From a virus (Duplodnaviria > Heunggongvirae > Uroviricota > Caudoviricetes): a stretch of DNA of 22,955 nucleotides. This document shows, one piece after another, positions 1-19,601 of this stretch; the first letter of the stretch is position 1; each line of letters begins with the position of its first letter. The notes below the pieces were generated by a model. It had not been told where the DNA came from and searched no databases. It worked only from the letters and a program-made list of their open reading frames with translations. The stretch is from IMG/VR virus record IMGVR_UViG_2541047790_000011. One strand, written 5' to 3'. A program made the translations under genes and the position numbers.

Positions 1-1239
1 ATGAGCAGGGCAATTCATAGACTTAGCGACACTCTTTTACGAAAATTAAGCGGATCACCAACCACAAAAAGCACCTTTTTTAATGATGGTGGCAATCTTA
101 GCGTAAGGCATTCAATCAATGGCCTGTTAACCTGGTATTTCACTTACAGGGCCGGAACTGGTAGGCAGATATCACCGGAACGTCTGAGGCTGGGCAATTA
201 TCCCGATCTGAGCCTGAAAGCTGCCAGGGAAAAAGCGGCACAGTGTCGCGCCTGGCTGGCTGAGGGGAAAAATCCGCGCTATGAACTTAATCATGCTGTA
301 CAGGACGCGTTAGCCCCCGTGACGGTTAAGGAAGCGCTCACTTACTGGCTTGAATCGTACGCAAAGGAAAAGCGCACTGACTACGAATCACTGAAAAGCC
401 GGATCAATAAACACATAATTAGCCAGATTGGCGCTATGCCACTGGAAAAATGCGAGCTACGCCACTGGCTGGCCTGTTTTGACCAGCTTGCTAAGCGTAA
501 TCCGGTATCAGCCGGATTTTTGCTACAGGTATGCAAACAGGCGCTTAAGTACTGCCGAAAACGACGATACGCAATCAGCAACGTTCTTGATGATATGGTC
601 GTAGGTGATGTGGGGAAAAAAGCAGAAATAAGTGAGCGTGTACTGACAAACAAAGAGCTTGGAGAACTACTCCGCGCACTGGATGAAAAAATCTTCCCGC
701 CGTACTACAGCGCCCTAATTCGCCTCCTGATTGTTTTTGGATGCCGTACCACTGAGCTAAGGCGCTCTGAGGTGCAGGAGTGGGATTTTAAGGAAATGCT
801 CTGGACAGTACCGAAGGAGCACAGCAAAACGAAGGTCGCCATATTCAGACCAATACCGGAAAGCATTCTGCCGTTCGTCACGCAGCTGGTGGAGAAGAAC
901 AGGCACACGGGCTTATTGCTTGGAGAACTGAAAGGGCAATCATCCGTAGCAGAGTACGGAAGAACAGCGCACAGACGAATTAATCAAGCCCCCTGGACGT
1001 TACACGATATCCGGCACACATTTACAACCATGCTGAACGATTTAGGCGTGGATCCGCATATTGTCGAGCAGCTTACAGCCCACCAGATGCCAGGGATGCA
1101 ACGCGTCTATAACCACTCCCGTTATCTTGATGCAAAACGTGATGCTCTTAATCTATGGGTAGACCGTCTCGAGCTTCTCCAGAACAATGATGAAAAAGTC
1201 GTTGTTATGACCCCACGAATTTACACCCAAAATTCTTGA
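1..1239 (+). CDS. int: Tyrosine recombinase / integrase, P4 family
   Basis: 412-aa ORF. The N-terminus 'LLTWYFTYRAG...RLRLGNYPDLSLKAAREKA' matches the arm-binding domain pattern of P4-type integrases. Catalytic-core motifs are present: 'FGCRTTEL' (Arg), 'HDIRHTF' (His-x-x-Arg) and 'YNHSRY' (Tyr region). The ORF begins at window base 1. Confidence 0.93.
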   Translation: MSRAIHRLSDTLLRKLSGSPTTKSTFFNDGGNLSVRHSINGLLTWYFTYRAGTGRQISPERLRLGNYPDLSLKAAREKAAQCRAWLAEGKNPRYELNHAVQDALAPVTVKEALTYWLESYAKEKRTDYESLKSRINKHIISQIGAMPLEKCELRHWLACFDQLAKRNPVSAGFLLQVCKQALKYCRKRRYAISNVLDDMVVGDVGKKAEISERVLTNKELGELLRALDEKIFPPYYSALIRLLIVFGCRTTELRRSEVQEWDFKEMLWTVPKEHSKTKVAIFRPIPESILPFVTQLVEKNRHTGLLLGELKGQSSVAEYGRTAHRRINQAPWTLHDIRHTFTTMLNDLGVDPHIVEQLTAHQMPGMQRVYNHSRYLDAKRDALNLWVDRLELLQNNDEKVVVMTPRIYTQNS

Positions 1240-1648
1240 CAAATTACGGCTGTTTTTTCTTTAAGAGATTACAGCCGTGAATAAAACGCTAAATATCGGT
1301 CAAGTTCGTTAATTTTTTATTTTTCAACCATCGAAAAAATTGAAATGCACCCTACTAAACCCTTATTAGCTATTTCTTGATTGTTCCAATACCTGATGGT
1401 TTATCTGTTTGTTTTTAATGAGATAATTCAAGCGTAATGCCAAATGACGACATTTTTTGTTGCGTCGCTTAAAAACTCGTGACACGATTTTAAACACTAA
1501 CGAGCTTCTACGAACCTTAGCGAACAAAGCCTTTAGCAAGGTTGTGTTTTTAATTTAAGAGGTGAAAAAGAATCTAAGTAATATCCGATCTCATATATCT
1601 ACAGCTAAGAGAAAAGTTTATATACGTAATTTTTATGTAGGTTTTTGT

Positions 1649-1858
1649 ATGCGTGAAATAAATGAAGATCGCGTAATCCGTGAGGATGAATGTCGTAAGT
1701 TAACTGGAGTGTGTCGCACTACACGCTACGAACTGGAGAAAAAAGGATGCTTTCCGTCACGTCTTAATCTGGGCGGTCGTTCTGTTGGTTGGCTGCTGTC
1801 CGAGGTTATGGAATGGGTTAAAAGCCGGGATCGCATTAATTCAGGTAAGGCAGCGTAA
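1649..1858 (+). CDS. alpA: AlpA-family helix-turn-helix regulator / excisionase-like protein
   Basis: 69 aa from ATG 1649; the ORF-track GTG at 1562 is an unlikely start. 'RVIREDECRKLTGVCRTTRYELEKKGCFPSRLNLGGRSVGWLLSEVMEWV' is the typical AlpA/MerR-like HTH pattern. It sits immediately after int, as in P4-like islands and PICIs. Confidence 0.85.
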   Translation: MREINEDRVIREDECRKLTGVCRTTRYELEKKGCFPSRLNLGGRSVGWLLSEVMEWVKSRDRINSGKAA

Positions 1859-1970
1859 AGGGGGAGTATATGGCACATAAAACAAAGGCGACCGGGGGCG
1901 GTCGCCAATGGGAAAACACTAAACATAAGCACGGGGATGATAGCCGCTATCAGGCTGGTGGGCAATGCAA

Positions 1971-2159
1971 TCAGTCTGGTTCAGTTCGTTGCCATACCTG
2001 CAATGAGCGCTTTTCCCTGTACTCTTTAAGGAATTGCTCAAGGGCAAAAGCACATGACGCGAATCTTTCTGATTCATGCTCTATCTTTCTGCGCCGTCTT
2101 TTCCGTGCCGGTGATAATGTTTTGGTCAATTCTTTATCGGTCATTGTGTTGTCCTGCAT
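1971..2159 (-). CDS. Hypothetical small basic protein (62 aa), second gene of the leftward RHH operon
   Basis: ORF downstream of, and co-oriented with, the RHH gene. It has an Arg/Lys-rich centre 'ARKRRRRKIEHE'. No recognisable family. Confidence 0.4.
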   Translation of the reverse strand: MQDNTMTDKELTKTLSPARKRRRRKIEHESERFASCAFALEQFLKEYREKRSLQVWQRTEPD

Positions 2160-2201
2160 AGCAATGCGCCGTAATACCTTACACCACGGCGCTGGTGATG
2201 G

Positions 2202-2381
2202 TTACTCCTGCTCTTTGGCTTTGCGGCGCTGGCGGCGTTTGATCTCGCCTTTTGCGGCAGTAACTAAAAAACCAGCGGTACTTTCGCCAGGTTCTTTAAG
2301 TTGCTCAATATCATCCATTACTTCATGTGGGATTCTGACAGTTGTCATTTGTGATTTTGCGTTCTTTGCACCAGTTGCCAT
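2202..2381 (-). CDS. Ribbon-helix-helix (CopG/Arc-like) DNA-binding protein, candidate island repressor
   Basis: 59 aa from ATG 2381, preceded by TAGGAG with a 7-nt spacer. 'MTTVRIPHEVMDDIEQLKEPGESTAGFLVTAA' fits the beta-strand/helix/helix RHH pattern. The 115-aa ORF-track version is an upstream over-extension. Confidence 0.65.
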   Translation of the reverse strand: MATGAKNAKSQMTTVRIPHEVMDDIEQLKEPGESTAGFLVTAAKGEIKRRQRRKAKEQE

Positions 2382-2447
2382 TTCTGGATCTCCTAAAAAT
2401 TGGTGTATGTCAGTATACGCAAAAAAAATGATAAAAAAAGGCTTGAA

Positions 2448-2493
2448 GTGTATTTCACCAGTGAGTAAATTAAAAAGCAAAGGTGAAATACAC
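2448..2493. promoter_or_regulatory. 12-bp perfect inverted repeat (GTGTATTTCACC ... GGTGAAATACAC, 22-bp spacer) in the divergent control region
   Basis: Read directly. It lies in the 390-bp non-coding gap between the leftward RHH operon and the rightward replication operon, so it is a candidate operator. Confidence 0.45.
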
Positions 2494-2770
2494 CTGAAAG
2501 AGCAACGCCCCGCAGTGCTCGCAACACATGCAGGGCGTCTAACCACCAACGATAGAAAGAGTATCGAGGTAGCTATGAGAAATCATACCACACACCCGCA
2601 AGGGCGGGACTCGCACAACCTGAATAAATATATCTGGCGTTTTATCGCCCTGAGCACGGCACAACCGCGCGTAATCCACATTGAGGCCACCAGAGAACAG
2701 GAAGCCCGTCAGCAATCCCCGGCTGGCTGCGTGATGGTATTCGCCGCCCGTATTCGTCAGGGGGTGAGTC

Positions 2771-2998
2771 ATGCATAAAATACCCTTTGATGTTCTTGTT
2801 CATTCTGAAAACGCATTAATCCGCGCAAAGGAAATGGACGCATTACTACTTAAGTTAATTGATGTGCCGGAAAGTGGCGAAGATCATTCATCATTAATGT
2901 TTGCCGCTGTTCAGACATTATTGACACCTGTTATTGATGAACTCAATAAGGCTATGGCAATTCACGAGAATAATAAAGCGCCCCACACCGGAGAATAA
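2771..2998 (+). CDS. Hypothetical protein (75 aa), first gene of the rightward replication operon
   Basis: ORF with an ATG start, tightly followed by the next two genes. No family recognised. Confidence 0.6.
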   Translation: MHKIPFDVLVHSENALIRAKEMDALLLKLIDVPESGEDHSSLMFAAVQTLLTPVIDELNKAMAIHENNKAPHTGE

Positions 2999-3003
2999 AA
3001 ATA

Positions 3004-3303
3004 ATGAAACTTAAATATTCTGGCTTAACTGCCAGTGGCAAAACTCGCACTAAATTCATGCGCGGTGATATTTACCGCGACCAGTACGGCGGCACGGTAA
3101 TGATTAAGGGCGTGGAGGAACGGCGCGTAACCTACCGTCGTGAAGGCTACGAATATGATTGCGTGATGCCTGTTTATCAGTTCGATCGTGATTTTTCTCT
3201 GGTGCAGGCCGTACCGCGTAACGTGCCCACCAGCAGGGAGAAAGCACGCGCCAATATTCAGGAAATAAAAAAGATGCTTAACGTATTCAGGGGTAAAAAA
3301 TGA
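3004..3303 (+). CDS. Hypothetical protein (99 aa)
   Basis: The ORF's stop overlaps the primase start (ATGA at 3300-3303), indicating translational coupling. Confidence 0.6.
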   Translation: MKLKYSGLTASGKTRTKFMRGDIYRDQYGGTVMIKGVEERRVTYRREGYEYDCVMPVYQFDRDFSLVQAVPRNVPTSREKARANIQEIKKMLNVFRGKK

Positions 3304-5048
3304 AACTGGCACCGAACGTAAAAAAACAGCCACGCGGAATAAAACACAAAGACACAGAGGTAATTATTTTCGCGGGTAGTGATGCCTGGTCGCACGCGAA
3401 ACAATGGCAGGAGCAGGATGGCCCCGCATCCGGCGATAATGTGCCGCCTGTGTGGCTTGGGCCAAATCAGCTTGCCGAACTTGATGCACTGAAAATTGTT
3501 CCGGATGGAAAAAAACGCGTAAGGCTGTACCAGGCCGGAGAACTGGATTTGGTGGAGACCAAAAAGATTGGTCAGAAGCTGGCGGCGGCAGATATTCAGG
3601 ACGCAAATTTTTACCCCGAAGGAATGCACGTCCAGAAGTGTGAAAACTGGCGGCGCTATCTGAATGCTGAGCGTGAAAATATTGCCGCAGGGCTTACCAT
3701 GCCGGAGCAGAAAAATACGCAACTGGCACAAATGGCAGACAGTGAGCGCGCACAGATGCTTGCTGGTCGATTTGATGGCGTTTGTGTGCATCCGGAAAGT
3801 GAAATCGTTCACGTATGGCGCGGCGGGGTATGGTGTCCGGTCAGCACAATGGAACTTAGCCGCGAAATGGTGGCGATCTATTCAGAGCACAGGGCCACTT
3901 TCAGCAAGCGCGTAATCAATAACGCCGTGGAAGCGTTAAAAGTTATTGCCGAACCAATGGGCGAGCCGTCCGGTGATTTGCTGCCGTTTGCCAATGGTGC
4001 GCTTGACCTGAGAACAGGGGAATTTTCCTCTCACCAGCCGGATAACTGGATCACCACACACAACGGCATTGAGTACACGCCGCCAGTACCAGGTGAGAAT
4101 ATCCGCGACAACGCGCCAAACTTTCATAAATGGCTTGATCACGCTGCCGGAAAAGACCCGGGCAAGATGATGCGCATATGTGCCGCGCTATACATGATTA
4201 TGGCGAACCGGTACGACTGGCAGATGTTTATTGAGGCCACCGGAGACGGCGGGAGCGGCAAGAGCACTTTCACGCACATAGCCAGCCTTCTGGCAGGGAA
4301 ACAGAACACCGTAAGCGCTGAGATGACATCACTCGATGATGCTGGTGGGCGTGCGCAGGTTGTCGGAAGTCGGCTTATTGTCCTGGCAGACCAGCCGAAA
4401 TATACAGGCGAAGGCACGGGCATCAAGAAAATCACGGGCGGCGACCCTGTGGAGATTAACCCGAAATATGAAAAGCGATTCACGACCATAATCAGGGCTG
4501 TGGTACTGGCGACCAACAACAACCCGATGATATTCACGGAACGGGCCGGAGGCGTGTCACGTCGTCGCGTGATTTTCCAGTTCGACAACATTGTAAGGGA
4601 GGACGAAAAAGACAAGGATTTGCCGGAGAAGGTCGCGGCTGAAATCCCCGTAATTATACGCCGCTTGCTGGCTAATTTTGCCGACCCTGAAAAGGCACGG
4701 GCTTTACTCCTGGAACAGCGCGACGGTGATGAAGCACTGGCGATAAAGCAACAGACGGATCCGGTTATTGAGTTTTGCCAGTTCCTGAATTTTCTGGAGG
4801 AAGCACGCGGCCTGATGATGGGTGGCGGTGGCGATTCCGTGAAGTACACGACCAGAAACAGCCTTTACCGCGTCTATCTGGCGTTTATGGCATACGCAGG
4901 AAGAAGCAAGCCGCTAAACGTGGCTGAGTTCAGCAAGGCCATGAAGCCAGCGGCAAAAGTTTACGGACATGAATATATTACGCGGAAAGTTAAGGGAGTA
5001 ACGCAGACCAACGCAATTACAACGGATGATTGTGACGCGTTTTTATAA
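3300..5048 (+). CDS. Primase/helicase replication initiator (P4-alpha / D5-like, pri-rep type)
   Basis: 582 aa. Walker A 'EATGDGGSGKSTF' and Walker B-like 'RLIVLADQP' are present. The layout matches the C-terminal domain of phage/plasmid primases. An iteron array follows immediately 3' of the gene. Confidence 0.88.
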   Translation: MKLAPNVKKQPRGIKHKDTEVIIFAGSDAWSHAKQWQEQDGPASGDNVPPVWLGPNQLAELDALKIVPDGKKRVRLYQAGELDLVETKKIGQKLAAADIQDANFYPEGMHVQKCENWRRYLNAERENIAAGLTMPEQKNTQLAQMADSERAQMLAGRFDGVCVHPESEIVHVWRGGVWCPVSTMELSREMVAIYSEHRATFSKRVINNAVEALKVIAEPMGEPSGDLLPFANGALDLRTGEFSSHQPDNWITTHNGIEYTPPVPGENIRDNAPNFHKWLDHAAGKDPGKMMRICAALYMIMANRYDWQMFIEATGDGGSGKSTFTHIASLLAGKQNTVSAEMTSLDDAGGRAQVVGSRLIVLADQPKYTGEGTGIKKITGGDPVEINPKYEKRFTTIIRAVVLATNNNPMIFTERAGGVSRRRVIFQFDNIVREDEKDKDLPEKVAAEIPVIIRRLLANFADPEKARALLLEQRDGDEALAIKQQTDPVIEFCQFLNFLEEARGLMMGGGGDSVKYTTRNSLYRVYLAFMAYAGRSKPLNVAEFSKAMKPAAKVYGHEYITRKVKGVTQTNAITTDDCDAFL

Positions 5049-5062
5049 TTTTTTGTAAAAGC

Positions 5063-5288
5063 CCTCTACCCCATCTACCTGAATGAAATAAACGCATATT
5101 ATTCAACATGATAAGTGGGTAGAGGGATAGGTAGAAGGCTAATAAAACCCCTCTACCTCCTCTACCATGATTAAGGTCGTTTGTGAGGGGCGGGTAGAGG
5201 ATGGGTAGAGGGCCACGAAAAGCCCTCTACCCATCTGAAAGCCGCGCCATTACTGACCTGAAAGATGATTAGGTAGAAGAGGTAGAGG
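5063..5288. repeat. Replication-origin iterons: 11 copies of an 8-mer GGTAGAGG/CCTCTACC (8 exact, 3 one-off variants) in both orientations, flanking an AT-rich stretch
   Basis: Exact copies at 5063, 5118, 5150, 5159, 5193, 5204, 5224 and 5281. Variants at 5072 (CATCTACC), 5130 and 5272 (GGTAGAAG). The AT-rich segment is about 5080-5115. The position just 3' of the initiator gene matches SaPI/PICI origins. Confidence 0.75.
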
Positions 5289-5335
5289 AGGTGCACCACA
5301 ACCTAAAACTTTTTAAACGAGGGGGGTAAAAATAA

Positions 5336-5650
5336 ATGTGCATACATCAAAATCACTTAACAAACATGCCGACCGAAAACATGAATCAGGGGCGACAAAT
5401 GACCAAAATGCGCAGAGACAGAACAGAACCGAAATATCGCGCGTTAGACATGACAGAGCACGCTTTAAAGGTGGCAATCAGAACGATAGACCGCCACGCG
5501 GGGGAAGGATACGCGAAAGCACATCCCGAACTGATAAGCGCATTCATGACCACGGCGGCGGCAAACTTTGCCACGCTGACAGAACGGGAGATTGCCGAAG
5601 CGGAACAGGTAACAACCATCAACGTTAAAACCGGAGAGGTGGAATTATGA
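5336..5650 (+). CDS. Hypothetical protein (104 aa)
   Basis: ORF preceded by the G-rich SD-like GAGGGGGG. Its stop overlaps the ssb start (ATGA at 5647). Several internal ATGs make the start uncertain. Confidence 0.55.
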   Translation: MCIHQNHLTNMPTENMNQGRQMTKMRRDRTEPKYRALDMTEHALKVAIRTIDRHAGEGYAKAHPELISAFMTTAAANFATLTEREIAEAEQVTTINVKTGEVEL

Positions 5651-6072
5651 CGGCACAGATAGCCGCTTACGGGCGGCTGGTGGACGACCCGCAGGTAAAA
5701 CAGACCAGCAAGGGCACACCGATGACGCTGGCGCGTATGGCGGTATCTTTGCCATGCAGCCAGGCACAGGACGGACAGGCGACGTTATGGTTATCGGTCA
5801 TCGCATTTGGCAAACAGGCCGACTTCCTGGCTAAACATCAAAAAGGCGATGTTGCCAGCGTATCCGGCACGATGCAGGTAAGCCAGTGGACCGGACAGAA
5901 CGGAGAAACGCGGCAGGGCTGGCAGGTTATCGCAGACAGCGTGATCAGTGCGCGAACAGCGCGACCGGGCGGCAAAAAAGGCCAGCAGGGGCAGGCCACT
6001 GACGCACTGAACAGGGCAAAACAGCAGACGGGTCAGCACGATGATCCGTACGGGGACAACATACCGTTTTAG
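5647..6072 (+). CDS. ssb: Single-stranded DNA-binding protein
   Basis: 141 aa. The N-terminal half is OB-fold-like ('GRLVDDPQVKQTSKGTPMTLARMAV...WLSVIAFGKQADFLAKHQKGDVASVSGTMQVSQW'). A Gly/Gln-rich linker leads to the acidic tip '...DDPYGDNIPF', comparable to the E. coli SSB tip DDDIPF. Confidence 0.88.
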   Translation: MTAQIAAYGRLVDDPQVKQTSKGTPMTLARMAVSLPCSQAQDGQATLWLSVIAFGKQADFLAKHQKGDVASVSGTMQVSQWTGQNGETRQGWQVIADSVISARTARPGGKKGQQGQATDALNRAKQQTGQHDDPYGDNIPF

Positions 6073-6094
6073 CGACAACAGAGGGGACATTCCA

Positions 6095-6337
6095 GTGACA
6101 TTTGAAGAAGTCCAGCAACATAAAAAGTTTCATGATTTTGATGATCTGGAAACCATGACAGCAAAAAAATATCGCCGTCTGCTTTCTTCCGATGCGTTGT
6201 TTGTTGTGGATCATCATGATTTTCTGCGTAGCTCACTGACCGGGGAAATTTTCGCAACCAACCGTGAGCAGGTGGAAGCGATGATCGAATATCTGTGGAA
6301 AATAAGGCGCAGAATGCGAGATCCCGTGAAACGGTAA
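6095..6337 (+). CDS. Hypothetical protein (80 aa from GTG 6095; alternative ATG at 6041 gives 98 aa)
   Basis: GTG 6095 follows GAGGGGA with a 7-nt spacer and starts just after the ssb stop. ATG 6041 would overlap ssb by 32 nt. Confidence 0.5.
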   Translation: MTFEEVQQHKKFHDFDDLETMTAKKYRRLLSSDALFVVDHHDFLRSSLTGEIFATNREQVEAMIEYLWKIRRRMRDPVKR

Positions 6338-6346
6338 AATAATAAA

Positions 6347-6373
6347 GGCCTGGTAAAATCCAGGCCATTTTTT
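6347..6373. terminator. Bidirectional intrinsic terminator between convergent genes
   Basis: Stem GGCCTGG (6347-6353) pairs with CCAGGCC (6360-6366), with loop TAAAAT. A T-run lies at 6368-6373 on the plus strand. The minus strand reads T-rich after the stem. Confidence 0.7.
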
Positions 6374-6878
6374 ACAGTAAGCCTATTAGGGCACTTGCGC
6401 CAGCCCCAACAATGCTGGCAACGGTACTGTTTTCCAGTAACTGCTTTAATACTGATTTGGCTTGTACATCCCCCGATTTAGCGACTTTTTCAACCAGTTC
6501 AGTGATGCTGATGTTTACCAGCATATGGTTATGCTCACCTATCTGCACTTGATCACCACTAATTGAACCAATGTTAAATGTATTACTTTTAGTTGGCGTC
6601 ATATGTTCATTTCCCGTGATATTTTCAATATAGAGAGTCAACATATTTGGATGATTGGTTCCCTGTCTGCGGGTTCCATTGGGAAGCAACTTCATATCTA
6701 TAATTTTTAGATTTATCTCGTTTTTACCGACACGCTGGATAATGTGTTGACCAATAGTTACTTCCGGTTCATTTGTATATGGAATTAATACCTTGTTTTC
6801 TTTTGCGTTTCTTTTACCTCTGAATGATTCGCCATTAATTATGAAAGTATCAGGGTATACCATTGCGCTTAAATTCAT
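6372..6878 (-). CDS. Hypothetical 168-aa protein with a C-terminal hydrophobic tail; opposite-strand, AT-rich cargo gene of the island
   Basis: Clean ORF with AAAGGA upstream of the ATG. It ends in 'STVASIVGAGASALIGLL', a predicted C-terminal membrane anchor. It is the only large minus-strand gene between the replication and head modules. It is visibly AT-richer than its neighbours (by eye, not computed). Confidence 0.75.
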   Translation of the reverse strand: MNLSAMVYPDTFIINGESFRGKRNAKENKVLIPYTNEPEVTIGQHIIQRVGKNEINLKIIDMKLLPNGTRRQGTNHPNMLTLYIENITGNEHMTPTKSNTFNIGSISGDQVQIGEHNHMLVNISITELVEKVAKSGDVQAKSVLKQLLENSTVASIVGAGASALIGLL

Positions 6879-6944
6879 GATGCGTCCTTTGTTGTAGTCA
6901 GAGACAGCAATAATAGGCCATGGTTTACTTCTTTTGTAAATTAT

Positions 6945-6971
6945 TTGTTCGTGTTCTTTCGTGGTTGTTCG
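6945..6971 (+). promoter_or_regulatory. Three 10-bp-phased direct repeats TTGTTCG / TCTTTCG / TTGTTCG upstream of the head operon
   Basis: Copies start at 6945, 6955 (2 mismatches) and 6965. The same 7-mer occurs three times in the same 10-bp phasing at 14177-14203. Confidence 0.4.
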
Positions 6972-7164
6972 GTCTGACTGACAGGTGTTTACATACTGAT
7001 TTTTATGTATATGTTGTAGCGTGGCACTCAGACGTGAGCCGCCACAATGCCGCCTGACCCCCTGCGCGATGCCGGGTTGATCTGCGAGATGCCGAGAGTG
7101 TCGGGCGGCGCTCCCCCCGTGTTGGTTTCACGTCCTGAATCTTAACCAATACGAGAAAACCTTC

Positions 7165-8334
7165 ATGAAGAAATTAATCGAACTCCGCCAGCAAAAAAAC
7201 GCCCTGAAAAACCAGATGCGATCCCTGCTGGAAAAAGCCGACAGTGAAAACCGTAGTCTGAACGCTGAAGAAGGCAAACAGTTTGATGAACTGCGTGCAA
7301 AAGCTGATGCCCTCGACACAGAAATTTCCCGCCTCGAGTCTGTGGCTGATGAAGAACGCAGCAAGCCAGGAACGGGCATCCAGAAATTATCATCTGATGA
7401 ATTGCGTAACTACATCGTAACCGGAGATGTGCGATCACTGTCCACCAGCACTGACAGCGGCAGGGATGGCGGATATACCGTAATTCCTGAGCTTGATCGC
7501 GAAGTCATGCGCCAGCTACAGGATGACAGTGTTATGCGCGTGATCGCGACCGTGAAGACCGCAAAATCAAATGAGTTTCAGAAACTGGTTTCCACTGGCG
7601 GCGCAACTGTAGGACGAGGCACAGAAGGCAGCGCACGCAGTGAAACCAACACCCCGAAAATTGAACGCGTAACCATCAAGTTGAATCCGATCTACGCCTA
7701 CCCGAAAACCACGCAGGAAATCCTGGATTTTTCAGAGGTGGATATTCTGGGCTGGTTATCCTCCGAAATTGCCGACACGTTCGCCAGCACCGAAGAGGAT
7801 GATTTTGTTAATGGCGACGGTAACGGCAAGCCGAAAGGCTTCATGGCTTACACCCGTGCGGCGACCAGTGACAAAACCCGCGCTTTTGGCACCATTGAAA
7901 AAATAGTAGCGGCAAGTGGAACCGCCATTACAGCGGACGAACTGATCGACATTCTCTACAAGCTGAAAGCGAAATACCGCAAAAATGCCGTATGGGTGAT
8001 GAACTCGGGCACGGCAGGGACACTACAGAAGCTGAAAAATGAGAACGGCGATTATATCTGGCGCGACAGCCTTAAAGAAGGTGCGCCGGATATGTTGCTT
8101 GGTCGTCCTGTTTACTGCCTGGAGTCCATGCCGGACATCGGCGCAGGAAAAGCACCGCTAGCGGTTGGCGATTTCAGTCGTGGTTATTTCATCGTTGATC
8201 ATGTAACAGGGATTCGCACCCGACCGGACAACATTACTGAACCCGGATTCTACAAGGTCCACACGGATAAATATCTGGGCGGTGGTGTGGTGGATTCAAA
8301 CGCCATCAAAATTCTGGAAATGAAAGCTGGCTAG
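7165..8334 (+). CDS. Major capsid protein, HK97 family, with N-terminal coiled-coil scaffolding (delta) domain
   Basis: 389 aa. The N-terminus 'MKKLIELRQQKNALKNQMRSLLEKADSENRSLNAEEGKQFDELRAKADALDTEISRLESV' is delta-domain-like. The rest resembles HK97-family MCPs. A prohead protease and portal follow. Confidence 0.92.
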   Translation: MKKLIELRQQKNALKNQMRSLLEKADSENRSLNAEEGKQFDELRAKADALDTEISRLESVADEERSKPGTGIQKLSSDELRNYIVTGDVRSLSTSTDSGRDGGYTVIPELDREVMRQLQDDSVMRVIATVKTAKSNEFQKLVSTGGATVGRGTEGSARSETNTPKIERVTIKLNPIYAYPKTTQEILDFSEVDILGWLSSEIADTFASTEEDDFVNGDGNGKPKGFMAYTRAATSDKTRAFGTIEKIVAASGTAITADELIDILYKLKAKYRKNAVWVMNSGTAGTLQKLKNENGDYIWRDSLKEGAPDMLLGRPVYCLESMPDIGAGKAPLAVGDFSRGYFIVDHVTGIRTRPDNITEPGFYKVHTDKYLGGGVVDSNAIKILEMKAG

Positions 8335-8346
8335 TCATGAGTAAGG

Positions 8347-8368
8347 AGGAGGCTGCGGCCTCCTTTTT
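8347..8368 (+). terminator. Intrinsic terminator/attenuator between the capsid and protease genes
   Basis: Stem AGGAGGC (8347-8353) pairs with GCCTCCT (8358-8364), loop TGCG, then a T-run to 8368. It sits 13 nt after the MCP stop. Confidence 0.55.
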
Positions 8369-8388
8369 CAGCTTTATGGAGTACACCG

Positions 8389-8949
8389 ATGAAAAACACC
8401 GATTTTGAAATCCGCACATCTGAACTGACCGCCAGCAATAAAAAGCTGGTGGGGTATGCCGTTCGCTGGAACAGCCTTTCAGAAATTATCTGGGACGAAT
8501 TCCGCGAACAGTTCACGCCGGGGGCTTTTGCTGACTATCTGGCGACGGGTAATGATGTGCGCTGCCTGTATGAGCATGACTATACCCAACTGCTGGGGCG
8601 CACCAAATCCGGCACTCTGGTACTGACTGAGGATAACACCGGGTTACGTTTTGAACTGACACCGCCGGATACCCAGCTTGGAAAAGATGTGCTTACGCTG
8701 GTGGAGCGTGGCGACATTACAGGAATGAGCTTTGGTTTTCGCGCATTATGCGAGGAGTGGAGTATCGCGCAAAAACCGTATCTGCGTACCGTAACCGCCG
8801 CTGAACTCCGTGAAATCACAATAACGTCGATGCCTGCTTATCCAGAATCTGGCGTGGAGATTGCCCACCGTTCGTTGTTTGCACAGCACCCTGAATTACG
8901 TCCGACAGGAAATAATCTTCATCGCTGGTCTGAGCTGGCGGGGTTGTGA
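8389..8949 (+). CDS. Prohead (head maturation) serine protease, HK97 family
   Basis: 186 aa. 'LVGYAVRWNSLSE...FTPGAF...DVRCLYEHD...LLGRTKSGTL.L.ED..GL.F....PDT..G.D.L.LV.RGDI.GMSFGF' is the pattern of HK97 gp4-type (S78/U35) proteases. Confidence 0.9.
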   Translation: MKNTDFEIRTSELTASNKKLVGYAVRWNSLSEIIWDEFREQFTPGAFADYLATGNDVRCLYEHDYTQLLGRTKSGTLVLTEDNTGLRFELTPPDTQLGKDVLTLVERGDITGMSFGFRALCEEWSIAQKPYLRTVTAAELREITITSMPAYPESGVEIAHRSLFAQHPELRPTGNNLHRWSELAGL

Positions 8950-8950
8950 T

Positions 8951-10165
8951 ATGTGGTGGCCTTTTAGTCGTAAAAAAAGCGAGCAGCGTAACCTGTCCAT
9001 TGATGATTTTCTGGCGCTGTCCGGCGTACCGAATACCGGATCCGGAGAATATGTTTCTGCCGGGACGGCTGAATCATTGCCTGCAGTGATGAATGCGGTT
9101 TCTGTCATCGCTGAGGCGGTGGCCACGATGCCGTGTTATCTGTATCTGGTACGTAATGACAAGGGCAGGGAGGCGCGGGAATGGCTGGACAGTCACCCGG
9201 TAGATATTCTGCTGAATGAGCAGCCTAATTCGTGCCAGACACCTTACCAGTTTAAACGCACAATGATGCGTCACTGCCTGCTGAACGGTAACGCCTATGC
9301 GGTTATTGAGTGGGGGCAGGACGGGCAGCCAAAATCACTTCATCCTTATGCGCCGGGGTGTGTTGTACCGGAACGCACAGGCGCACACAAATACCGCTAT
9401 ACCATCACCGAACCCTGTACAGGAACGGTGCGCACGTATTTACAGGAAGAAGTTCTGCATCTCCGCTATGCCTCGGATGATGGCTTTCTGGGGCGTTCCC
9501 CCGTCACGATTTGCCGTGAGGCGCTGGGGCTTGGCCTTGCTCAACAGCGTCACGGAGCCAGCATTATGAAAGATGGCATGATGGCGGCAGGGATTATCAC
9601 GTCAGGCGAATGGCTGGACGGCGTGAAAGGTAAACAGGCATTGGATGCTCTGGAACGCTACAAGGGGGCGAAAAATGCCGGAAAAACGCCAATCCTTGAA
9701 GGGGGCATGGATTACAGGCAACTGGGAATGAGTAACCAGGATGCGGAATGGCTGGCCTCCCGTCGCTTCTCCATTGAAGACATCGCCCGCATGTTCAACG
9801 TATCGCCTATTTTTCTGCAGGAATACAGCAACAGCACCTACAGCAATTTCAGCGAGGCAAGCCGCGCGTTTCTGACCATGACAATGCGCCCGTGGCTGGC
9901 GAACTTCGAACAGCAAATCAAGGCCGCTTTGCTGGTGGCTTCTCCCGTACCTGGTACCCGTTATCTGGTTGAGTTTGATTCAGCCGATTTATTACGCGCC
10001 ACACCCACCGAACGTTATGCCACGTATGAGAAAGGGATTAAGAACGGGATCATGAATCCGAACGAAGCCCGTGAGCGTGAGGGTATGCCGCCGCGTGAAG
10101 GTGGTGATGAGTTCAGCCAGGCATGGAAACAGACTGTGGAAATTAAAGGGAGAAAAGATGAGTGA
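8951..10165 (+). CDS. Portal protein, HK97 family
   Basis: 404 aa from ATG 8951, which lies 1 nt after the protease stop. The ORF-track start at 8861 overlaps the protease gene. Size, position and sequence character match HK97-type portals. Confidence 0.9.
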   Translation: MWWPFSRKKSEQRNLSIDDFLALSGVPNTGSGEYVSAGTAESLPAVMNAVSVIAEAVATMPCYLYLVRNDKGREAREWLDSHPVDILLNEQPNSCQTPYQFKRTMMRHCLLNGNAYAVIEWGQDGQPKSLHPYAPGCVVPERTGAHKYRYTITEPCTGTVRTYLQEEVLHLRYASDDGFLGRSPVTICREALGLGLAQQRHGASIMKDGMMAAGIITSGEWLDGVKGKQALDALERYKGAKNAGKTPILEGGMDYRQLGMSNQDAEWLASRRFSIEDIARMFNVSPIFLQEYSNSTYSNFSEASRAFLTMTMRPWLANFEQQIKAALLVASPVPGTRYLVEFDSADLLRATPTERYATYEKGIKNGIMNPNEAREREGMPPREGGDEFSQAWKQTVEIKGRKDE

Positions 10166-10460
10166 AGCCAAAATTACACCTGATGAAGTCAGGGCACATC
10201 TTCGACTTGATGATGATTTATCCGGTGAAGGCGAACTTCTGAAAATGTATACCGATGCGGCGCTGGAAGCCTGCCAGAAGCATATCGGGAAACGTTTTGA
10301 AGACGGGCTGGAATTTACCCCGGCAATGCGTGTTGGTTGCCTGATGTACATCGCTTTCCTGTACGAGAACCGGGAAGCGGTTTCACCAGTGGAGCACTCG
10401 GAACTGCCTATGGCTATTTCTGCGCTCTGGTCAGTTTATCGTGACGTAGGGGTGTACTGA
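10158..10460 (+). CDS. Head-tail connector / adaptor (gp6-like DNA-packaging protein)
   Basis: 100 aa from ATG 10158, overlapping the portal stop. 'ITPDEVRAHLRLDDD...ELLKMYTDAALEACQKHIG' is the typical N-terminus of gp6-like head-tail connector proteins. Confidence 0.8.
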   Translation: MSEAKITPDEVRAHLRLDDDLSGEGELLKMYTDAALEACQKHIGKRFEDGLEFTPAMRVGCLMYIAFLYENREAVSPVEHSELPMAISALWSVYRDVGVY

Positions 10461-10900
10461 TGCCGTGGCAACCATTAAGGCGATGCACTGAGCCTGGCTG
10501 TAATAAGCGCGTGAAGTCCGGCAAGTGTGAAGAGCACAGGCGGGCTGCATGGCGTGCAGAGGATGCCAGACGGGGACACCGCCGCGCGCGCGGGTATTCC
10601 CGACAGTGGGACAAATACCGCGCCCTGTACCTGAGCAAAAACCCGTTATGCGTGAGTTGTCTGGCTAAGGGGATTTATACGCCAGCTCTTGTGGTGGATC
10701 ACATCATTCCCATCAATGGCGGCGGTGATGTTCTCTTCTGGCCTGAGTGGAACCACCAGGCATTGTGCCAGACGTGCCACAACCGTAAGACGACACGGGA
10801 AGATCCCGCCACGAAAGCGAACCGTAAGGCGGGCATGTATCGCGATCAGGAAGAACGGGCGGCACACCGTAACGACTGGATGTATGGCGATGATGACTGA
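10460..10900 (+). CDS. HNH endonuclease (cos-packaging accessory nuclease)
   Basis: 146 aa. The motif 'LCVSCLAKG....A.VVDHIIPI.....F...WNHQALCQTCHNRKT' carries HNH residues plus Cys pairs. It lies just upstream of terS, as in HK97-like cos phages. Confidence 0.9.
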   Translation: MPWQPLRRCTEPGCNKRVKSGKCEEHRRAAWRAEDARRGHRRARGYSRQWDKYRALYLSKNPLCVSCLAKGIYTPALVVDHIIPINGGGDVLFWPEWNHQALCQTCHNRKTTREDPATKANRKAGMYRDQEERAAHRNDWMYGDDD

Positions 10901-11069
10901 ACAGGAGCAAAACAGGCTGATACGTGGGTTGATAAGGCAGCGTGACACATGGAAGACACAGGAGACAGGGCACAAAGCCAACAGGACAGGGCGCACAAAA
11001 CGCACCACAGCGAAGCGATTAACCGACCGTGACCGCGAGGTCATGGAATGTTTTCGCAATCGCTGGTGA
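10884..11069 (+). CDS. Possible small basic protein (about 58-61 aa)
   Basis: This is the distal part of ORF 10689-11069, beginning at the ATG cluster 10884/10890/10893 that overlaps the HNH stop. Arg/Lys/Thr-rich. No family recognised; it may be non-coding. Confidence 0.3.
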   Translation: MAMMTEQEQNRLIRGLIRQRDTWKTQETGHKANRTGRTKRTTAKRLTDRDREVMECFRNRW

Positions 11070-11188
11070 GGCCGTCAGAGGGGGTGGGGGTGGTTTTCAG
11101 GACGAAACCGTCCCTGCCGGACACCGACCGCCTCCCCAAATTTTTATGCACGGGAATTTTTTGAAAAATAATCTGACGAAAAATAAGC
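11070..11188. other. Candidate cos (cohesive-end) region
   Basis: 119-bp non-coding gap between the HNH module and terS. It has a G-run (11078-11093, GAGGGGGTGGGGGTGG) and a C-rich tract (11124-11137). This is the canonical cos position in HNH-dependent HK97-like packaging systems. Confidence 0.4.
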
Positions 11189-11545
11189 ATGGCAAGACCA
11201 CCGAAAGCCCCCGCCTACCTGGATGATATCGCCGTGAAGCAGTGGCGGGAAAAATCGCGGCAGCTTGCGGAACGGGGAGACCTGACCCCCGCCGACTGGA
11301 GCAATCTGGAACTGTATTGCGTCAACTACTCCATTTACCGGAAAGCCGTTGCAGACCTTGCGGCGCGCGGGTTCAGCATTGTTAACAGTCAGGGCGGCGA
11401 GAGCAGAAACCCCGCATTAAGCGCAAAATCCGACGCTGAAAGAGTGATGATAAAAATGGCCTCCTTGCTCGGTTTTGACCCGATAAGCCGCCGTAAAAAT
11501 CCACCGGAAACAGAAGAAGAGGACGAGCTTGACCGCCTGGAATAA
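11189..11545 (+). CDS. terS: Terminase small subunit, P27 family
   Basis: 118 aa. 'PPKAPAYLDD.A...W......L...G.LT.AD...LE.YC..Y..YR.A...L...G......G....NPA' matches the P27-family TerS pattern. It overlaps the terL start. Confidence 0.88.
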   Translation: MARPPKAPAYLDDIAVKQWREKSRQLAERGDLTPADWSNLELYCVNYSIYRKAVADLAARGFSIVNSQGGESRNPALSAKSDAERVMIKMASLLGFDPISRRKNPPETEEEDELDRLE

Positions 11546-13190
11546 GTACGCAGAAGACGTAAAAACGGGCAAAATTCCGGCCTGTAAACGGCTGAAACAG
11601 GCCGTTAAACGGTACTTTTCGGACCTTGAAAGCCCCCTTTACACGTTCGATCGTGAGGTTGTGGAGCGGTTTATTGCCTTTTCCAGGGTGTGCGCGCACG
11701 TAAAAGGGCCGATGCGTGGCAGACCCATTGAGCTGGAGCCGTGGCAGCAGTTCGCCTTTGCGTGCATCCTCGGCTTTAAGGTTAAGGCCACCGGACGGCG
11801 CAAATACACGAGCGCCTTTATCGAAGTGCCGCGCAAAAATGCGAAATCCACGACCGCCGCGATTCTGGCTAACTGGTTTCTGATTATGGAGAACGGTCAG
11901 CAGGATATCTACACCGCAGCGGTGAGCCGTGACCAGGCGCGGATCGTCTTTGATGATGCGCGTCAGATGTGCCTTTTATCCCGACCGTTACGCAGGCGGG
12001 TGAATATTCAGGCGCATAAGGTGATACACCCGAAAACCAACAGCCTGTTAAAGCCACTGGCAGCAAAAGCGGCAACCATTGAGGGGACAAACCCGAGTCT
12101 TGCCATTGTGGATGAATATCACCTGCACCCAGACAACGGGGTTTATTCCGCACTTGATATGGGGATGGGCGCACGTCCCGAAGGGCTGTTATTTGCCATT
12201 ACCACATCGGGCAGTAACGTCGTTTCAGCCTGTAAGCAGCACTATGATTATTGCTGCCAGATCCTGGACGGCGAAGAGGTCAACGATTCAATTTTTGTAC
12301 TGATTTACGAACTGGACGACGAAAACGAGGTTGATGATCCGGCGATGTGGATAAAGGCTAACCCTAACATCGATGTTTCCGTCGATCGTGAAAAACTGGC
12401 CTCAACCATCCAGAAAGCGCGGGGTATTCCGTCGCAATGGGTGGAAATGCTCACCAAGCGATTCAATATCTGGTGTCAGGGGGCTACGCCGTGGATGGGT
12501 AACGGTGCATGGGCGGAGTGTGCCGGAACGTTCGCGGAGGCGGATTTATACGGGCAGGAGTGCTACGCGGGGCTGGACTTATCATCAACCAGCGATATTT
12601 CCAGCGTGTGCTATGCCTTCCCGGTCGGTAAAAAGATTATGCTGGTTTCCCGTCACTATCTGCCGGAATTTCAGCTACAGAATCCCGCCAATAAAAACCG
12701 CGCCATCTATCGCCAGTGGGTAAAGGCGGGCTGGATACGCACAACACCGGGTGACTGCATTGATTATGACCGTATCCGTGATGACATCATGGCGGATGCA
12801 GAGAATTTCAATATCAGGCTGGTGGGCTTCGATACATGGAACGCCACGCACCTGAGGACGCAGTTACAGGGCGCAGGATTTGAGGTGGAGCCGTTCCCGC
12901 AAACCTACCTCAGATTCAGTCCGGCGGCGAAATCGTTCGAAGTTTTTGTTAACCGGAAGGTGATTGTGCATCGTGGTGATCCGGTGCTGGCCTGGTCAAT
13001 GAGTAATGTTGTGATGCAGAGTGACGCGAACGCCAATATCAAGCCGAACAAGAAAAAATCATCCAACAAGATAGACCCGAGCGTTGCGGCGCTGATGGCG
13101 TTTGGCACATTCCAGGCAGAGCACGAGGACTTTGCATTCGATATGAGCGACAGCCACAAAGAGCGGCTTGCGGCGTTTGATGGGGTATGA
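11529..13190 (+). CDS. terL: Terminase large subunit
   Basis: 553 aa. ATPase motifs 'VPRKNAKSTTAA' (Walker A-like) and 'LAIVDEYH' (Walker B) are present, followed by a C-terminal nuclease-domain-sized region. Confidence 0.93.
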   Translation: MTAWNKYAEDVKTGKIPACKRLKQAVKRYFSDLESPLYTFDREVVERFIAFSRVCAHVKGPMRGRPIELEPWQQFAFACILGFKVKATGRRKYTSAFIEVPRKNAKSTTAAILANWFLIMENGQQDIYTAAVSRDQARIVFDDARQMCLLSRPLRRRVNIQAHKVIHPKTNSLLKPLAAKAATIEGTNPSLAIVDEYHLHPDNGVYSALDMGMGARPEGLLFAITTSGSNVVSACKQHYDYCCQILDGEEVNDSIFVLIYELDDENEVDDPAMWIKANPNIDVSVDREKLASTIQKARGIPSQWVEMLTKRFNIWCQGATPWMGNGAWAECAGTFAEADLYGQECYAGLDLSSTSDISSVCYAFPVGKKIMLVSRHYLPEFQLQNPANKNRAIYRQWVKAGWIRTTPGDCIDYDRIRDDIMADAENFNIRLVGFDTWNATHLRTQLQGAGFEVEPFPQTYLRFSPAAKSFEVFVNRKVIVHRGDPVLAWSMSNVVMQSDANANIKPNKKKSSNKIDPSVAALMAFGTFQAEHEDFAFDMSDSHKERLAAFDGV

Positions 13191-13480
13191 CGAGAATGAG
13201 CGAAACCGAACTACTAAAAATAATCCGCCGTGTTACCGGAGCCAGCCAGACAGCAGACAAACAGGAGGCCACGCAGCCGGACAGCGTGATAGCCGAAAAT
13301 TACGCGCGTGTGGTGGCTGAGGTGATGCGCCGTGACGGTATTGAGCTTAACGGCGTGGATATGCGCAACATACGAACCAGAGTCCTTGAGTTGCTGGCAT
13401 ACCGTCGCCGTTCTCAACAACGGAGGGAGAGCGCGAAAAATACTTATCAGTGGAAGAAGCCGGAACGGTTGCGGCGGTAA
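13187..13480 (+). CDS. Hypothetical protein (97 aa), last gene of the island
   Basis: Its start overlaps the terL stop (ATGA). No family recognised. Confidence 0.5.
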   Translation: MTRMSETELLKIIRRVTGASQTADKQEATQPDSVIAENYARVVAEVMRRDGIELNGVDMRNIRTRVLELLAYRRRSQQRRESAKNTYQWKKPERLRR

Positions 13481-13593
13481 CTTGCAGATATTCCCGATAA
13501 CGTAAAATTGCGTTGGCTGGCAGAGTGCAAATTTGCACGATGGCCTAACCCATTGATTGTTTCGGAAACCTCAATTTGAGGAGGCCGGACAGC

Positions 13594-13628
13594 GTGACGG
13601 AGGGTGACAACCAGTGACACGCCGTGAC
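13594..13628 (+). repeat. Four direct GTGAC repeats at exact 10-bp phasing
   Basis: GTGAC at 13594, 13604, 13614 and 13624. This is in the non-coding right end of the island. Confidence 0.4.
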
Positions 13629-14176
13629 AAAAAGACGGTTTAACCATCCATTAAAAATCGACGTGATTTTGTGCTTTCCGTATGAGGTGGCCAGCGTCAT
13701 TTTTTAGTGAGAAATTCTGGTCAGGGGCGTTGGCTGAATGGTTATTTTATCGTGCCCATGCACAGGGAGGGGGCGGGTAAAATCTCTGGAGGTGATGCCT
13801 GTCAGGACCGCCGCCTGACCCTTCCTCACATCGCCGCAGGTTCGAAAACTTTTTTTGTGTCAGGTGCGCACGGAATTGATAGATAAAACCTATATTAAAA
13901 AATCACGGAAGCCGTGCCATTGCTGGAGCAGTCAAAAATTCCACATCTCACGGCAGGCAAAAAAAGCGAATTTTGGGCCAGTTGAGGATAAAAAAGGGCT
14001 CACTAGTTTTGCACATCCTGGTATCGGGGTCGTCAGCCTCCCGCCAGTAACTAGGTAACTAATCACGCTGGTGGGCATGATGCCGATGCCGGGATCTCGG
14101 TATCGGTTTATCTGTGATCATCCACCAGCTTGATGACAGATAACAGGGAGTCATAACGGTTAAAGCGTGTTGATCT

Positions 14177-14233
14177 TTGTTCGTGGTTGTTCGATATTGT
14201 TCGTAAAGCGGTGTAGTTAATGGTGTAGTTAAT
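14177..14233 (+). repeat. Three exact TTGTTCG repeats at 10-bp phasing, followed by a tandem 12-mer GGTGTAGTTAAT x2
   Basis: TTGTTCG at 14177, 14187 and 14197. GGTGTAGTTAAT at 14210-14221 and 14222-14233. Confidence 0.4.
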
Positions 14234-14406
14234 TTCGCTGTTTTTGACGAGCTTATCATTTGCAACGCAATGAAAAACAAAGACTAATTAACAAAATGCT
14301 ATAAATGATAGTTATCTATCATGTGGAGTAGATTGGTCAGGCAAATAAGCTCTTGTCAGCGGCAGGGCGTTCTGCCGATAACCGTAACCGAAGATGATAA
14401 CTGACA

Positions 14407-17246: not shown

Positions 17247-17334
17247 GTTCACTGCCGTACAGGCAGCTTAGAAATTGCCGCGGATCCTGTCTGCCAATAA
17301 TGACAAGTTCACTGCCGTACAGGCAGATAAAATG
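17247..17334 (+). CRISPR. Minimal orphan type I-F CRISPR array (2 repeats, 1 spacer); no cas genes in the window
   Basis: Repeat 1 is 17247-17274, GTTCACTGCCGTACAGGCAGCTTAGAAA, the E. coli/Yersinia I-F repeat. The 32-nt spacer is 17275-17306, TTGCCGCGGATCCTGTCTGCCAATAATGACAA. Repeat 2 is 17307-17334, identical for 20 nt and then degenerate (ATAAAATG), as terminal repeats usually are. Confidence 0.85.
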
Positions 17335-17465: not shown

Positions 17466-17508
17466 AAATTGTTTTTTTGCCTGACCTCATGGGGGGCAAC
17501 GGGGCGCT

Positions 17509-17537
17509 ACTATAGGGAGTTGGAATAAAACGGTCAA
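17509..17537 (-). promoter_or_regulatory. serW sigma70 promoter with a GC-rich discriminator
   Basis: On the minus strand: -35 TTGACC (17532-17537), a 17-bp spacer, -10 TATAGT (17509-17514), then the GC-rich AGCGCCCCG typical of stringently controlled tRNA promoters. Confidence 0.6.
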
Positions 17538-17830
17538 GAAGAATTTTTATGATAATTATTGTTTGCTCATACTGTAAACAAGTTGTGCAGTATATCTACA
17601 TCTGATGCGCCGCGCGATAAATAAGCCGCAATCCGTGAGATAAATGGACACAGTGCGGCTTTTCAGATACGGAAAAGGAATTACAGATTATCAGTCGTAA
17701 GCAACCCACGCTTACTGGCAAGGATGGTTTACAATGCTGAAAGCGCCTCCCGGCAATACCGCCAATCATCACTCAAACAGAAAAAATTATTGCTCATGGT
17801 TCACTCCGGTAATGAATCGTTTTACAGGCG

Positions 17831-18424: not shown

Positions 18425-18425
18425 T

Positions 18426-19040: not shown

Positions 19041-19041
19041 T

Positions 19042-19569: not shown

Positions 19570-19601
19570 AATCACACCTCGTCAACGATAAATATGCGCA
19601 C

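Follow-up and report, generated by a model that had tools for sequence, protein, structure and literature searches.

A probable capsid-forming phage-inducible chromosomal island at the yljB-clpS junction of Escherichia coli encodes a head-tail connector but no head-closure protein

The DNA analyzed here, hereafter the window, is a stretch of 22,955 nucleotides (IMG/VR virus record IMGVR_UViG_2541047790_000011) that is Escherichia coli chromosome, and bases 1 to 14400 of it are present at 100% identity in 13 complete genomes, including that of strain SaT040. These bases carry an integrated element that very probably is a capsid-forming phage-inducible chromosomal island (cf-PICI) and from which one gene of the head, that for the head-closure protein, is absent. 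Direct repeats (D11) and comparison with K-12 MG1655, in which the site is empty, placed the attachment (att) cores, which are 21 bp long (ATAGATGATAGTTATYTATCA), at a site between yljB/cspD and clpS. The attL core lies at the yljB end, 188 to 168 bp upstream of window base 1, the attR core (ATAAATGATAGTTATCTATCA) lies at 14301 to 14321, and the element measures 14,488 bp between them, within the approximately 10 to 18 kb of cf-PICIs. A block of TGTTCG and GGTGTAGTTAAT motifs at 14168 to 14240 is mirrored just inside attL; the two form a 73-nt imperfect direct repeat (second copy, positions 5912 to 5984 of locus L001), one copy just inside each end of the element, that resembles arm-type integrase binding sites. 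A preliminary description of the window had ended the element at 14233, which falls inside this repeat and about 90 bp short of the attR border, but its statement that the block runs into core genome at clpS was borne out, as attR is followed by clpS (14407) and clpA. Upstream of base 1 in SaT040 lies the core genome segment macB-cspD-yljB, and the search there for attL and tail genes returned attL, 188 bp before base 1, and no tail genes. Counting copies at 99.9% identity, the element was found in 16 genomes, 13 of them with exact copies and 3 at 99.9%, at least one of which is O25:H4.

Window proteins were scanned against Pfam, PHROGs, NCBIfam and PADLOC, and the genes named in the preliminary description were each recovered in the position it had given, with a strong profile match for each. 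The head and packaging genes all lie on the plus strand and begin with those for an HK97-fold major capsid protein (MCP) with an N-terminal delta domain (7165 to 8334; PF05065, E = 2e-71), a prohead serine protease of the S78 family (8389 to 8949; PF04586, E = 6e-46), a portal protein (8951 to 10165; PF04860, E = 3e-92) and a gp6-like head-tail connector, Ad1 (10158 to 10460; PF05135; TIGR01560, 5e-20; phrog_40). They continue with an HNH endonuclease, which in HK97-type cos packaging serves the terminase as a cofactor (10460 to 10900; PF01844), and a conserved 61-amino-acid (aa) open reading frame (ORF; 10884 to 11069) that had no family match, is 80% identical to an EcCIEDL933 ORF and, from gene order, probably corresponds to EcCIEDL933 "gene 1792." After a conserved G-rich intergenic region (11070 to 11188) come the small terminase TerS of the P27 family (11189 to 11545; PF05119, E = 1e-23), the large terminase TerL (11529 to 13190; PF03354 and PF20441) and a conserved 94-aa ORF (13196 to 13480; phrog_1561; 73% identical to its EcCIEDL933 homologue). 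The intergenic region between hnh and terS is a plausible candidate for the cos site, and when positions 10850 to 11200, which contain it, were aligned with EcCIEDL933 and one relative (L005), column identity averaged 94% over the three sequences. By Pfam, capsid protein, protease, portal, HNH, TerS and TerL of the element's own are all present. None of the ORFs matched a tail, lysis or CI/Cro gene in the four databases, as the preliminary description had judged by eye, and neither flank (cspD-yljB and clpS-clpA) contributes a tail or lysis gene. The remaining small ORFs fell into PHROG families without known role, and nothing in Pfam, NCBIfam or PADLOC suggested that they act in tails, lysis or immunity.

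The MCP matched PDB entry 9gyi (E = 7e-154), which was deposited as "Major head protein" of 385 aa and which we take to be the capsid protein of EcCIEDL933. The EcCIEDL933 capsid is a T=4 shell of 47.5 nm, and its authors proposed a 22-residue "connector loop" of the MCP as the determinant of that small size (10.1101/2025.02.11.637232). The window MCP keeps the 22-residue loop at full length. A full T=4 head of EcCIEDL933 holds 15.5 kb, and the 14.5-kb genome of the element amounts to 94% of this.

The preliminary description credited the element with a full HK97-type head set, a claim that fails at one gene. Absent from the element is the head-closure protein Hc1, which is of the HK97 gp7 and SPP1 gp16 type (PF05521, TIGR01563) and is called the "adaptor" by the Penadés group. 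In EcCIEDL933, the 112-aa gene between portal and connector is annotated "phage head closure protein" in RefSeq and matches both PF05521 and TIGR01563, whereas in the window an alignment of the junction showed that Ad1 starts 8 nt before the portal stop codon with no gene between. Nor was Hc1 found elsewhere in the window: tblastn with six Hc1 proteins as queries returned none at E values up to 10, and a profile hidden Markov model built from 15 Hc1 sequences gave a best E value of 0.42 against 515 window ORFs (stop to stop, at least 25 aa, six frames), while recovering the prophage copy in a control locus at 2.5e-44. On these searches a hidden or displaced Hc1 gene was rejected, and no ORF unique to Hc1-less relatives that could replace Hc1 was found. 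Adaptor and connector are both among the eight packaging genes that define cf-PICIs, the pair decides which tails are captured, and EcCIEDL933, EcCIGN02175 and KpCIDSM30104 all encode both (He et al., 10.1101/2025.02.11.637232); the window element encodes the connector and no adaptor. The literature search found no mention of adaptor-less cf-PICIs. Because Hc1 is missing, the earlier view that the element takes only tails from its helper is doubtful.

The connector that remains has no feature that sets it apart in size, as Ad1 is about 97 to 101 aa long in Hc1-less elements and 97 to 98 aa in enterobacterial elements with Hc1, with no extra domain. Between cf-PICIs and HK97-like prophages, Hc1 proteins are 50 to 64% identical and Ad1 proteins 25 to 36%. 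A search of a phage database for the source of the Ad1 allele gave 34 to 39% identity at best among true phages, the only close matches being "phages" of 15 to 16 kb that are themselves cf-PICIs. Three records deposited as phages are LR881103.1 (16,548 bp, "Escherichia phage vB_KppS-Ant"), OR544139.1 (15,321 bp, "Pasteurella phage Pmp8") and OR544138.1 (10,714 bp, "Pmp7"), each of cf-PICI size with a cf-PICI connector, and they are probably satellites.

Ahead of the packaging genes, the element carries the integrase, alpA regulation and replication genes of a PICI, all recognized by Pfam, with 66 to 93% identity of integrase, AlpA and the DUF4222 protein to EcCIEDL933. The tyrosine integrase is of the P4 type with an arm-binding domain (1 to 1239, plus strand; PF00589 and PF13356, Phage_integrase and Arm-DNA-bind_3), and it is followed on the same strand by an AlpA-family regulator (1649 to 1858; PF05930, E = 1e-15), which in Gram-negative PICIs is the helper-activated inducer of excision (10.1101/2022.09.08.507074). 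A 302-aa ORF listed at 1870 to 2778 is no gene but spans an Icd-like pseudogene fragment (1921 to 2200, plus strand; SaT040 RefSeq annotation, 98% identical to part of an EcCIEDL933 ORF) and an intact Icd-like host cell division inhibitor (2575 to 2778, plus strand; NF033153, E = 1e-18). Between these two parts, on the minus strand, lies the gene of a small DNA-binding-like protein of the YlcI/YnfO family (2202 to 2381; NF041551, E = 9e-18; phrog_949), the "RHH" switch of the preliminary description. This gene and orf168 (below) both run on the minus strand, and the block is thus not wholly co-directional, as had been claimed.

The replication genes follow on the plus strand, starting with a small conserved ORF (2771 to 2998; phrog_2196) and the DUF4222 gene (3004 to 3303; PF13973, E = 5e-24; 93% identical to the EcCIEDL933 protein), which in these islands always precedes the primase. 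The primase/helicase (3300 to 5048; D5_N and DUF5906 in Pfam) is a module chimera relative to that of EcCIEDL933, the first 161 aa being alignable at 68% identity and the remainder being D5_N/DUF5906 instead of DUF927; in some relatives a third replication option, a RepA helicase, occurs after the same DUF4222 gene. Directly 3′ of the primase gene lies an iteron cluster and putative replication origin (5056 to 5292) with CCTCTACC-like motifs in both orientations. Allowing at most one mismatch, 11 of the 16 CCTCTACC matches in the window fall within 5063 to 5288, as do all eight exact copies, and the iterons of the preliminary description are therefore real. Downstream are a small conserved ORF (5399 to 5650, plus strand; phrog_1231; 90% identical to its EcCIEDL933 homologue), a single-stranded DNA-binding protein (SSB; 5647 to 6072, plus strand; PF00436, E = 2e-16) and a further small ORF, hyp82 (6089 to 6337, plus strand; phrog_1957), which occurs in relatives with and without Hc1 alike. 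An Rfam scan found no regulatory RNA in the island.

EcCIEDL933 itself was located in E. coli O157:H7 EDL933 at 1680329 to 1694760 of NZ_CP008957.1, between roxA and phoQ. It shares with the window element, in the same order and orientation, int, alpA, the DUF4222 gene, primase, SSB, MCP, protease, portal, Ad1, HNH, the 61-aa ORF, TerS, TerL and the trailing ORF. TerS is 100% identical and carries the same RefSeq accession (WP_000113645.1); identity is 95% for TerL, 93% for the DUF4222 protein, 83% for HNH and SSB, 81% for portal, 80% for the 61-aa ORF, 77% for the integrase, 73% for the trailing ORF, 66% for AlpA, 63% for MCP, 61% for protease and 56% for Ad1. The candidate cos region is conserved, and sizes are similar at 14.5 kb for the element and 15.4 kb for EcCIEDL933. 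The two differ in the att site (yljB-clpS versus roxA-phoQ), in the C-terminal module of the primase, in a variable slot that holds orf168 in the element and PerC in EcCIEDL933, and in the 112-aa PF05521 protein that only EcCIEDL933 has between portal and Ad1. Proteobacterial cf-PICIs are described as having the order capsid-protease-portal-connector-hnh-terS-terL and packaging proteins 50 to 90% similar to those of EcCIEDL933 (10.1101/2022.09.08.507074); the ORF map of the window has this order, and its packaging proteins are 56 to 100% identical to those of EcCIEDL933.

A closer relative of the packaging operon was found in the cf-PICI of strain 10 (L004; NZ_CP048330.1), with identities of 98.7% for MCP, 98.5% for portal, 98.9% for TerL, 100% for TerS and 96% for orf168. 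This relative has Hc1 and another Ad1 allele, only 57% identical, as well as an integrase 42% identical to that of the window, and it is inserted inside a prophage terL gene rather than at yljB-clpS. Within the packaging operon the difference is confined to a 466-bp cassette in strain 10, comprising the head-closure gene and the start of the different connector allele, where the window has 124 bp. The packaging operons of EcCIGN02175 and KpCIDSM30104 are conserved except for the adaptor-connector cassette, which varies and on which the choice of compatible phage tails depends (10.1101/2025.02.11.637232). Compared by their published description, those two islands have both genes, whereas the cassette of the window holds the connector alone.

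The Hc1-less arrangement is common among related elements in E. coli. In a collection of 5,426 complete E. coli genomes, the packaging module from portal to HNH was present in 534 (approximately 10%), and the direct portal-connector junction was present in 143, at junction identities from 100% down to 90%, or about a quarter of the genomes with the module. The junction occurs at no fewer than three sites, namely yljB-clpS as in the window, near fis (L009) and inside prophage terL (L005, L006 and L010), and the elements that have it carry replication modules of three types and one or the other of two MCP alleles, only 68% identical. Packaging ORFs were intact in 46 to 49 of approximately 50 Hc1-less loci of the E. 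coli type, among which the median pairwise ratio of nonsynonymous to synonymous substitutions (dN/dS) was 0.19 for the connector and 0.05 to 0.10 for portal, TerL, HNH and protease. Exact presence or absence of Hc1 was also seen between collinear elements of Gilliamella and Frischella and between those of Erwinia and its relatives, giving clean differences in three host clades, and Hc1-less elements were scattered among Hc1-positive ones in both portal and connector trees. The frequency, the several att sites and backbones, the intact ORFs, the low dN/dS and the recurrence in other genera are evidence from sequence comparison that the Hc1-less state is a maintained variant that has arisen repeatedly rather than a product of decay. 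One copy, near fis in E. coli PD7 (L009), has an IS1 at the place of the integrase (3007 to 3851 of that locus) and is probably immobilized as a result.

Four of the relatives (L004, 1 to 16900; L005, 1 to 16500; L006, 1 to 16500; L010, 1 to 16700) have inserted within terL of an HK97-like prophage, and they include forms with and without the head-closure gene. Joining the flanks of L005 restored an in-frame terL (...RVNFFTKHMNVWV...) with a short core of about TCACGAA. The rejoined terL sequence was contiguous in 905 of the E. coli genomes and present only as split halves in at least 30. A satellite that splits terL of its likely helper would block packaging by that phage until the satellite excised. 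Insertion of a cf-PICI into prophage terL was not found in the literature search.

Accessory or immunity genes of cf-PICIs are expected in a variable region that precedes the packaging operon, and in the window element this region holds the accessory gene orf168 (6372 to 6878, minus strand). The protein had no match in Pfam, NCBIfam or PADLOC and only "unknown" families in PHROGs, and its family comprises approximately 100 "hypothetical" homologues in Gammaproteobacteria, which elsewhere sit in prophage accessory regions; a Pseudomonas homologue lies in that of a P2-like prophage, beside a HEPN protein. A single-sequence AlphaFold2 model was poor (predicted local distance difference test [pLDDT] score, 59.5), and an alignment-based model (pLDDT, 76.7) placed a beta domain at the N terminus and helices at the C terminus; Foldseek searches of PDB with it gave no significant match (best E = 0.036, TM = 0.33). 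Profile and fold searches thus gave no support for orf168 as a tail, lysis or defense gene. A bidirectional terminator-like hairpin (6347 to 6366) lies between the convergent hyp82 and orf168, and the AT-rich region 5′ of the MCP gene (6879 to 7164) likely contains divergent promoters.

Beyond clpA, the window leaves the element and its immediate neighbors. The stretch from clpA to serW contains one orphan direct repeat of a type I-F CRISPR (17247 to 17274; Rfam CRISPR-DR4, 50 bits), at the known position of the residual E. coli CRISPR3/4 locus. Between serW and infA is an islet of approximately 6.5 kb (window 17500 to 22955; SaT040 948.6 to 954.6 kb), unrelated to the satellite, with a Mor-family activator (19042 to 19575, minus strand), several hypothetical genes, a HicB antitoxin and an IS5-family transposase (22032 to 22955, minus strand).

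Several known kinds of element were compared with the island. Classical Gram-negative PICIs such as EcCICFT073 and EcCIED1a share its int-alpA-primase backbone and the logic of helper-induced alpA, but they remodel and use helper capsids and use the helper terminase (Rpp and Ccm-type functions), whereas the island encodes MCP, protease, portal, TerS, TerL, HNH and Ad1; its own portal, Ad1 and TerL rule out membership. A P4-like satellite, with a psu-delta-sid module and the cos of a P2-type helper, was rejected since no ORF matched Psu, Sid or Delta in Pfam or PHROGs, and P4-like themes are limited to the integrase, the Icd-like gene and the primase. With HK97 the island shares an HK97-fold MCP with delta domain, S78 protease, portal, gp6-like connector, HNH-dependent cos packaging and P27-type TerS. 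HK97, however, is a phage of approximately 40 kb with a T=7 capsid, and since tail, lysis, head-closure and immunity genes are all absent from the island, a complete HK97-like temperate phage was rejected as well. HK97-like prophages, for example that in L005, have the order terS-terL-portal-protease-MCP-Ad1-Hc1-gp10-gp17-tail. The island order had been described as a circular permutation of that of HK97, but MCP-protease-portal is the reverse of portal-protease-MCP, and circularization followed by cos cutting would therefore not restore the HK97 order.

The conclusion of the preliminary description that the element is a capsid-forming island is upheld, and it belongs to the same clade as the experimentally characterized EcCIEDL933. 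We base this classification, in which we have high confidence, on the PICI-type backbone, the element's own packaging module, the att borders, the core genome flanks and the homology to EcCIEDL933. SatelliteFinder models a cfPICI by 11 core components, of which type A has all, type B 10 and type C the minimum of 9, and by the absence of tail and holin; it has catalogued about 969 copies (PMC10085698). By hand count, 10 of the 11 components are present, and as the adaptor is the only one missing, the element is type B-like by that rule.

How an island without Hc1 might complete its particles is best explained, in our judgment and with moderate confidence, by a cf-PICI that uses its own heads together with the lysis functions, the tail and the Hc1 of a helper phage. 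By extension from experiments on EcCIEDL933, a helper phage would switch on alpA, after which the island would excise at its att sites and replicate from the iteron origin with its own primase and SSB. One operon would then yield small, probably T=4, HK97-fold capsids from the island's own MCP, protease and portal, and the island's HNH, TerS and TerL would cut and package unit-length DNA from island concatemers at the candidate cos site between hnh and terS. The helper would supply lysis and tails, and its Hc1 ring would cap the island Ad1, such that neck-closing ring and tail would both be borrowed. In SPP1 and HK97-type necks, the portal-bound Ad1 ring is capped by an Hc1 ring that retains DNA and forms the tail-joining surface. 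As the island encodes neither Hc1 nor a candidate to replace it, Hc1 most plausibly comes from the helper, and the identity of cf-PICI and prophage proteins, higher for Hc1 than for Ad1, fits such a supply. Taken by itself, use of helper Hc1 in trans is a proposition for which we consider the evidence nearly balanced. We hold somewhat more tentatively the broader idea that Hc1-less cf-PICIs constitute a distinct, repeatedly evolved subtype that outsources both head-closure ring and tail to the helper.

Several points weigh against the favored explanation. The HK97-like prophage terL marker, searched with a chimeric query, is missing in 14 of the 16 genomes with the island, and therefore no resident helper or Hc1 donor is evident in them; the sole candidates around the island are a P2-like prophage at a distance of 30 kb and the small islet at serW. 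Given the low identity of island and prophage Ad1 (25 to 36%), the island protein may not bind a foreign Hc1. The MCP maturation motif of EcCIEDL933, SxGxxAD, is not strictly kept, the window having STSTDSGRD with a 2-residue insertion, such that the cleavage site is inferred only. Finally, every step of the mechanism is carried over from work on EcCIEDL933, EcCIGN02175 and KpCIDSM30104, each of which has adaptor and connector, and the literature search found no experiment on the present element.

An alternative that dispenses with Hc1 altogether is a cf-PICI that does take only tails, as the preliminary description proposed, and in which the divergent Ad1 alone would close the portal channel and dock onto a class of helper tails. 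Loss of Hc1 accompanies an Ad1 that is 57% identical to that of the strain 10 relative while portal and TerL are 98.5% and 98.9% identical, which fits an Ad1 adapted to a new partner, and Hc1-less forms are widespread, under purifying selection and of repeated origin. The Ad1 of Hc1-less elements is the same size as others and has no extra domain, however, and in SPP1 and HK97-type necks it is the stopper ring that retains DNA and binds the tail. Moreover, the elements of Gilliamella and Erwinia differ by a clean Hc1 indel across which the start of Ad1 is still alignable. We consider closure by Ad1 alone unlikely, although worth keeping in view.

The island might instead be a transfer-defective derivative that excises, replicates and fills capsids but whose heads cannot hold DNA or join tails, and that is inherited mainly vertically. 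The element is 99.9 to 100% identical in its 16 genomes, as might be expected of a clonally inherited island, neither the surroundings of the island nor the terL marker revealed a candidate helper, and in published experiments mutation of either adaptor or connector abolished transfer of EcCIEDL933. Vertical inheritance is hard to reconcile with the distribution of the Hc1-less cassette, which occurs at three or more att sites, on varied integrase and replication backbones and with varied MCP alleles and therefore requires horizontal movement and recombination. The ORFs are intact, dN/dS is low, and the architecture recurs independently in other genera, all of which make a defective derivative improbable. 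Origin from an HK97-like prophage through deletion of the genes for tail, lysis and immunity is scarcely credible, for although its head and packaging genes are of the HK97 type, the backbone (int, alpA, DUF4222, primase and iterons) is PICI-type, the att borders are precise, the gene order is unlike that of HK97-type prophages, the Ad1 of the nearest true phages is only 34 to 39% identical, cf-PICI capsid and TerL proteins are published as forming clades apart from those of phages, and 534 E. coli genomes share the layout.

Classification alone matters little here, as cf-PICIs were described in 2022 to 2023, their capsid structure and tail swapping were published in 2025, and the element is an additional member of that known family, of a variant that is catalogued but unstudied. 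The useful part is the missing head-closure gene, which the preliminary description overlooked. In the cf-PICIs studied so far, the adaptor-connector pair sets the tails that can be captured and hence the species that the island can reach, and a common lineage without adaptor needs some other means of closing its heads and docking tails. If the stopper of the helper is indeed used, the statement that cf-PICIs "steal only tails" would need qualifying, and the dependence would constrain the ability of such islands to release tail-less capsids that are stable and filled with DNA. For the Hc1-less subgroup, both the predicted host range and the predicted stability of free capsids without tails would change. 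Any helper with an Hc1 able to bind the island Ad1 would then automatically suit the capsid, a solution to tail compatibility unlike the swapping of adaptor and connector in the cf-PICIs studied.

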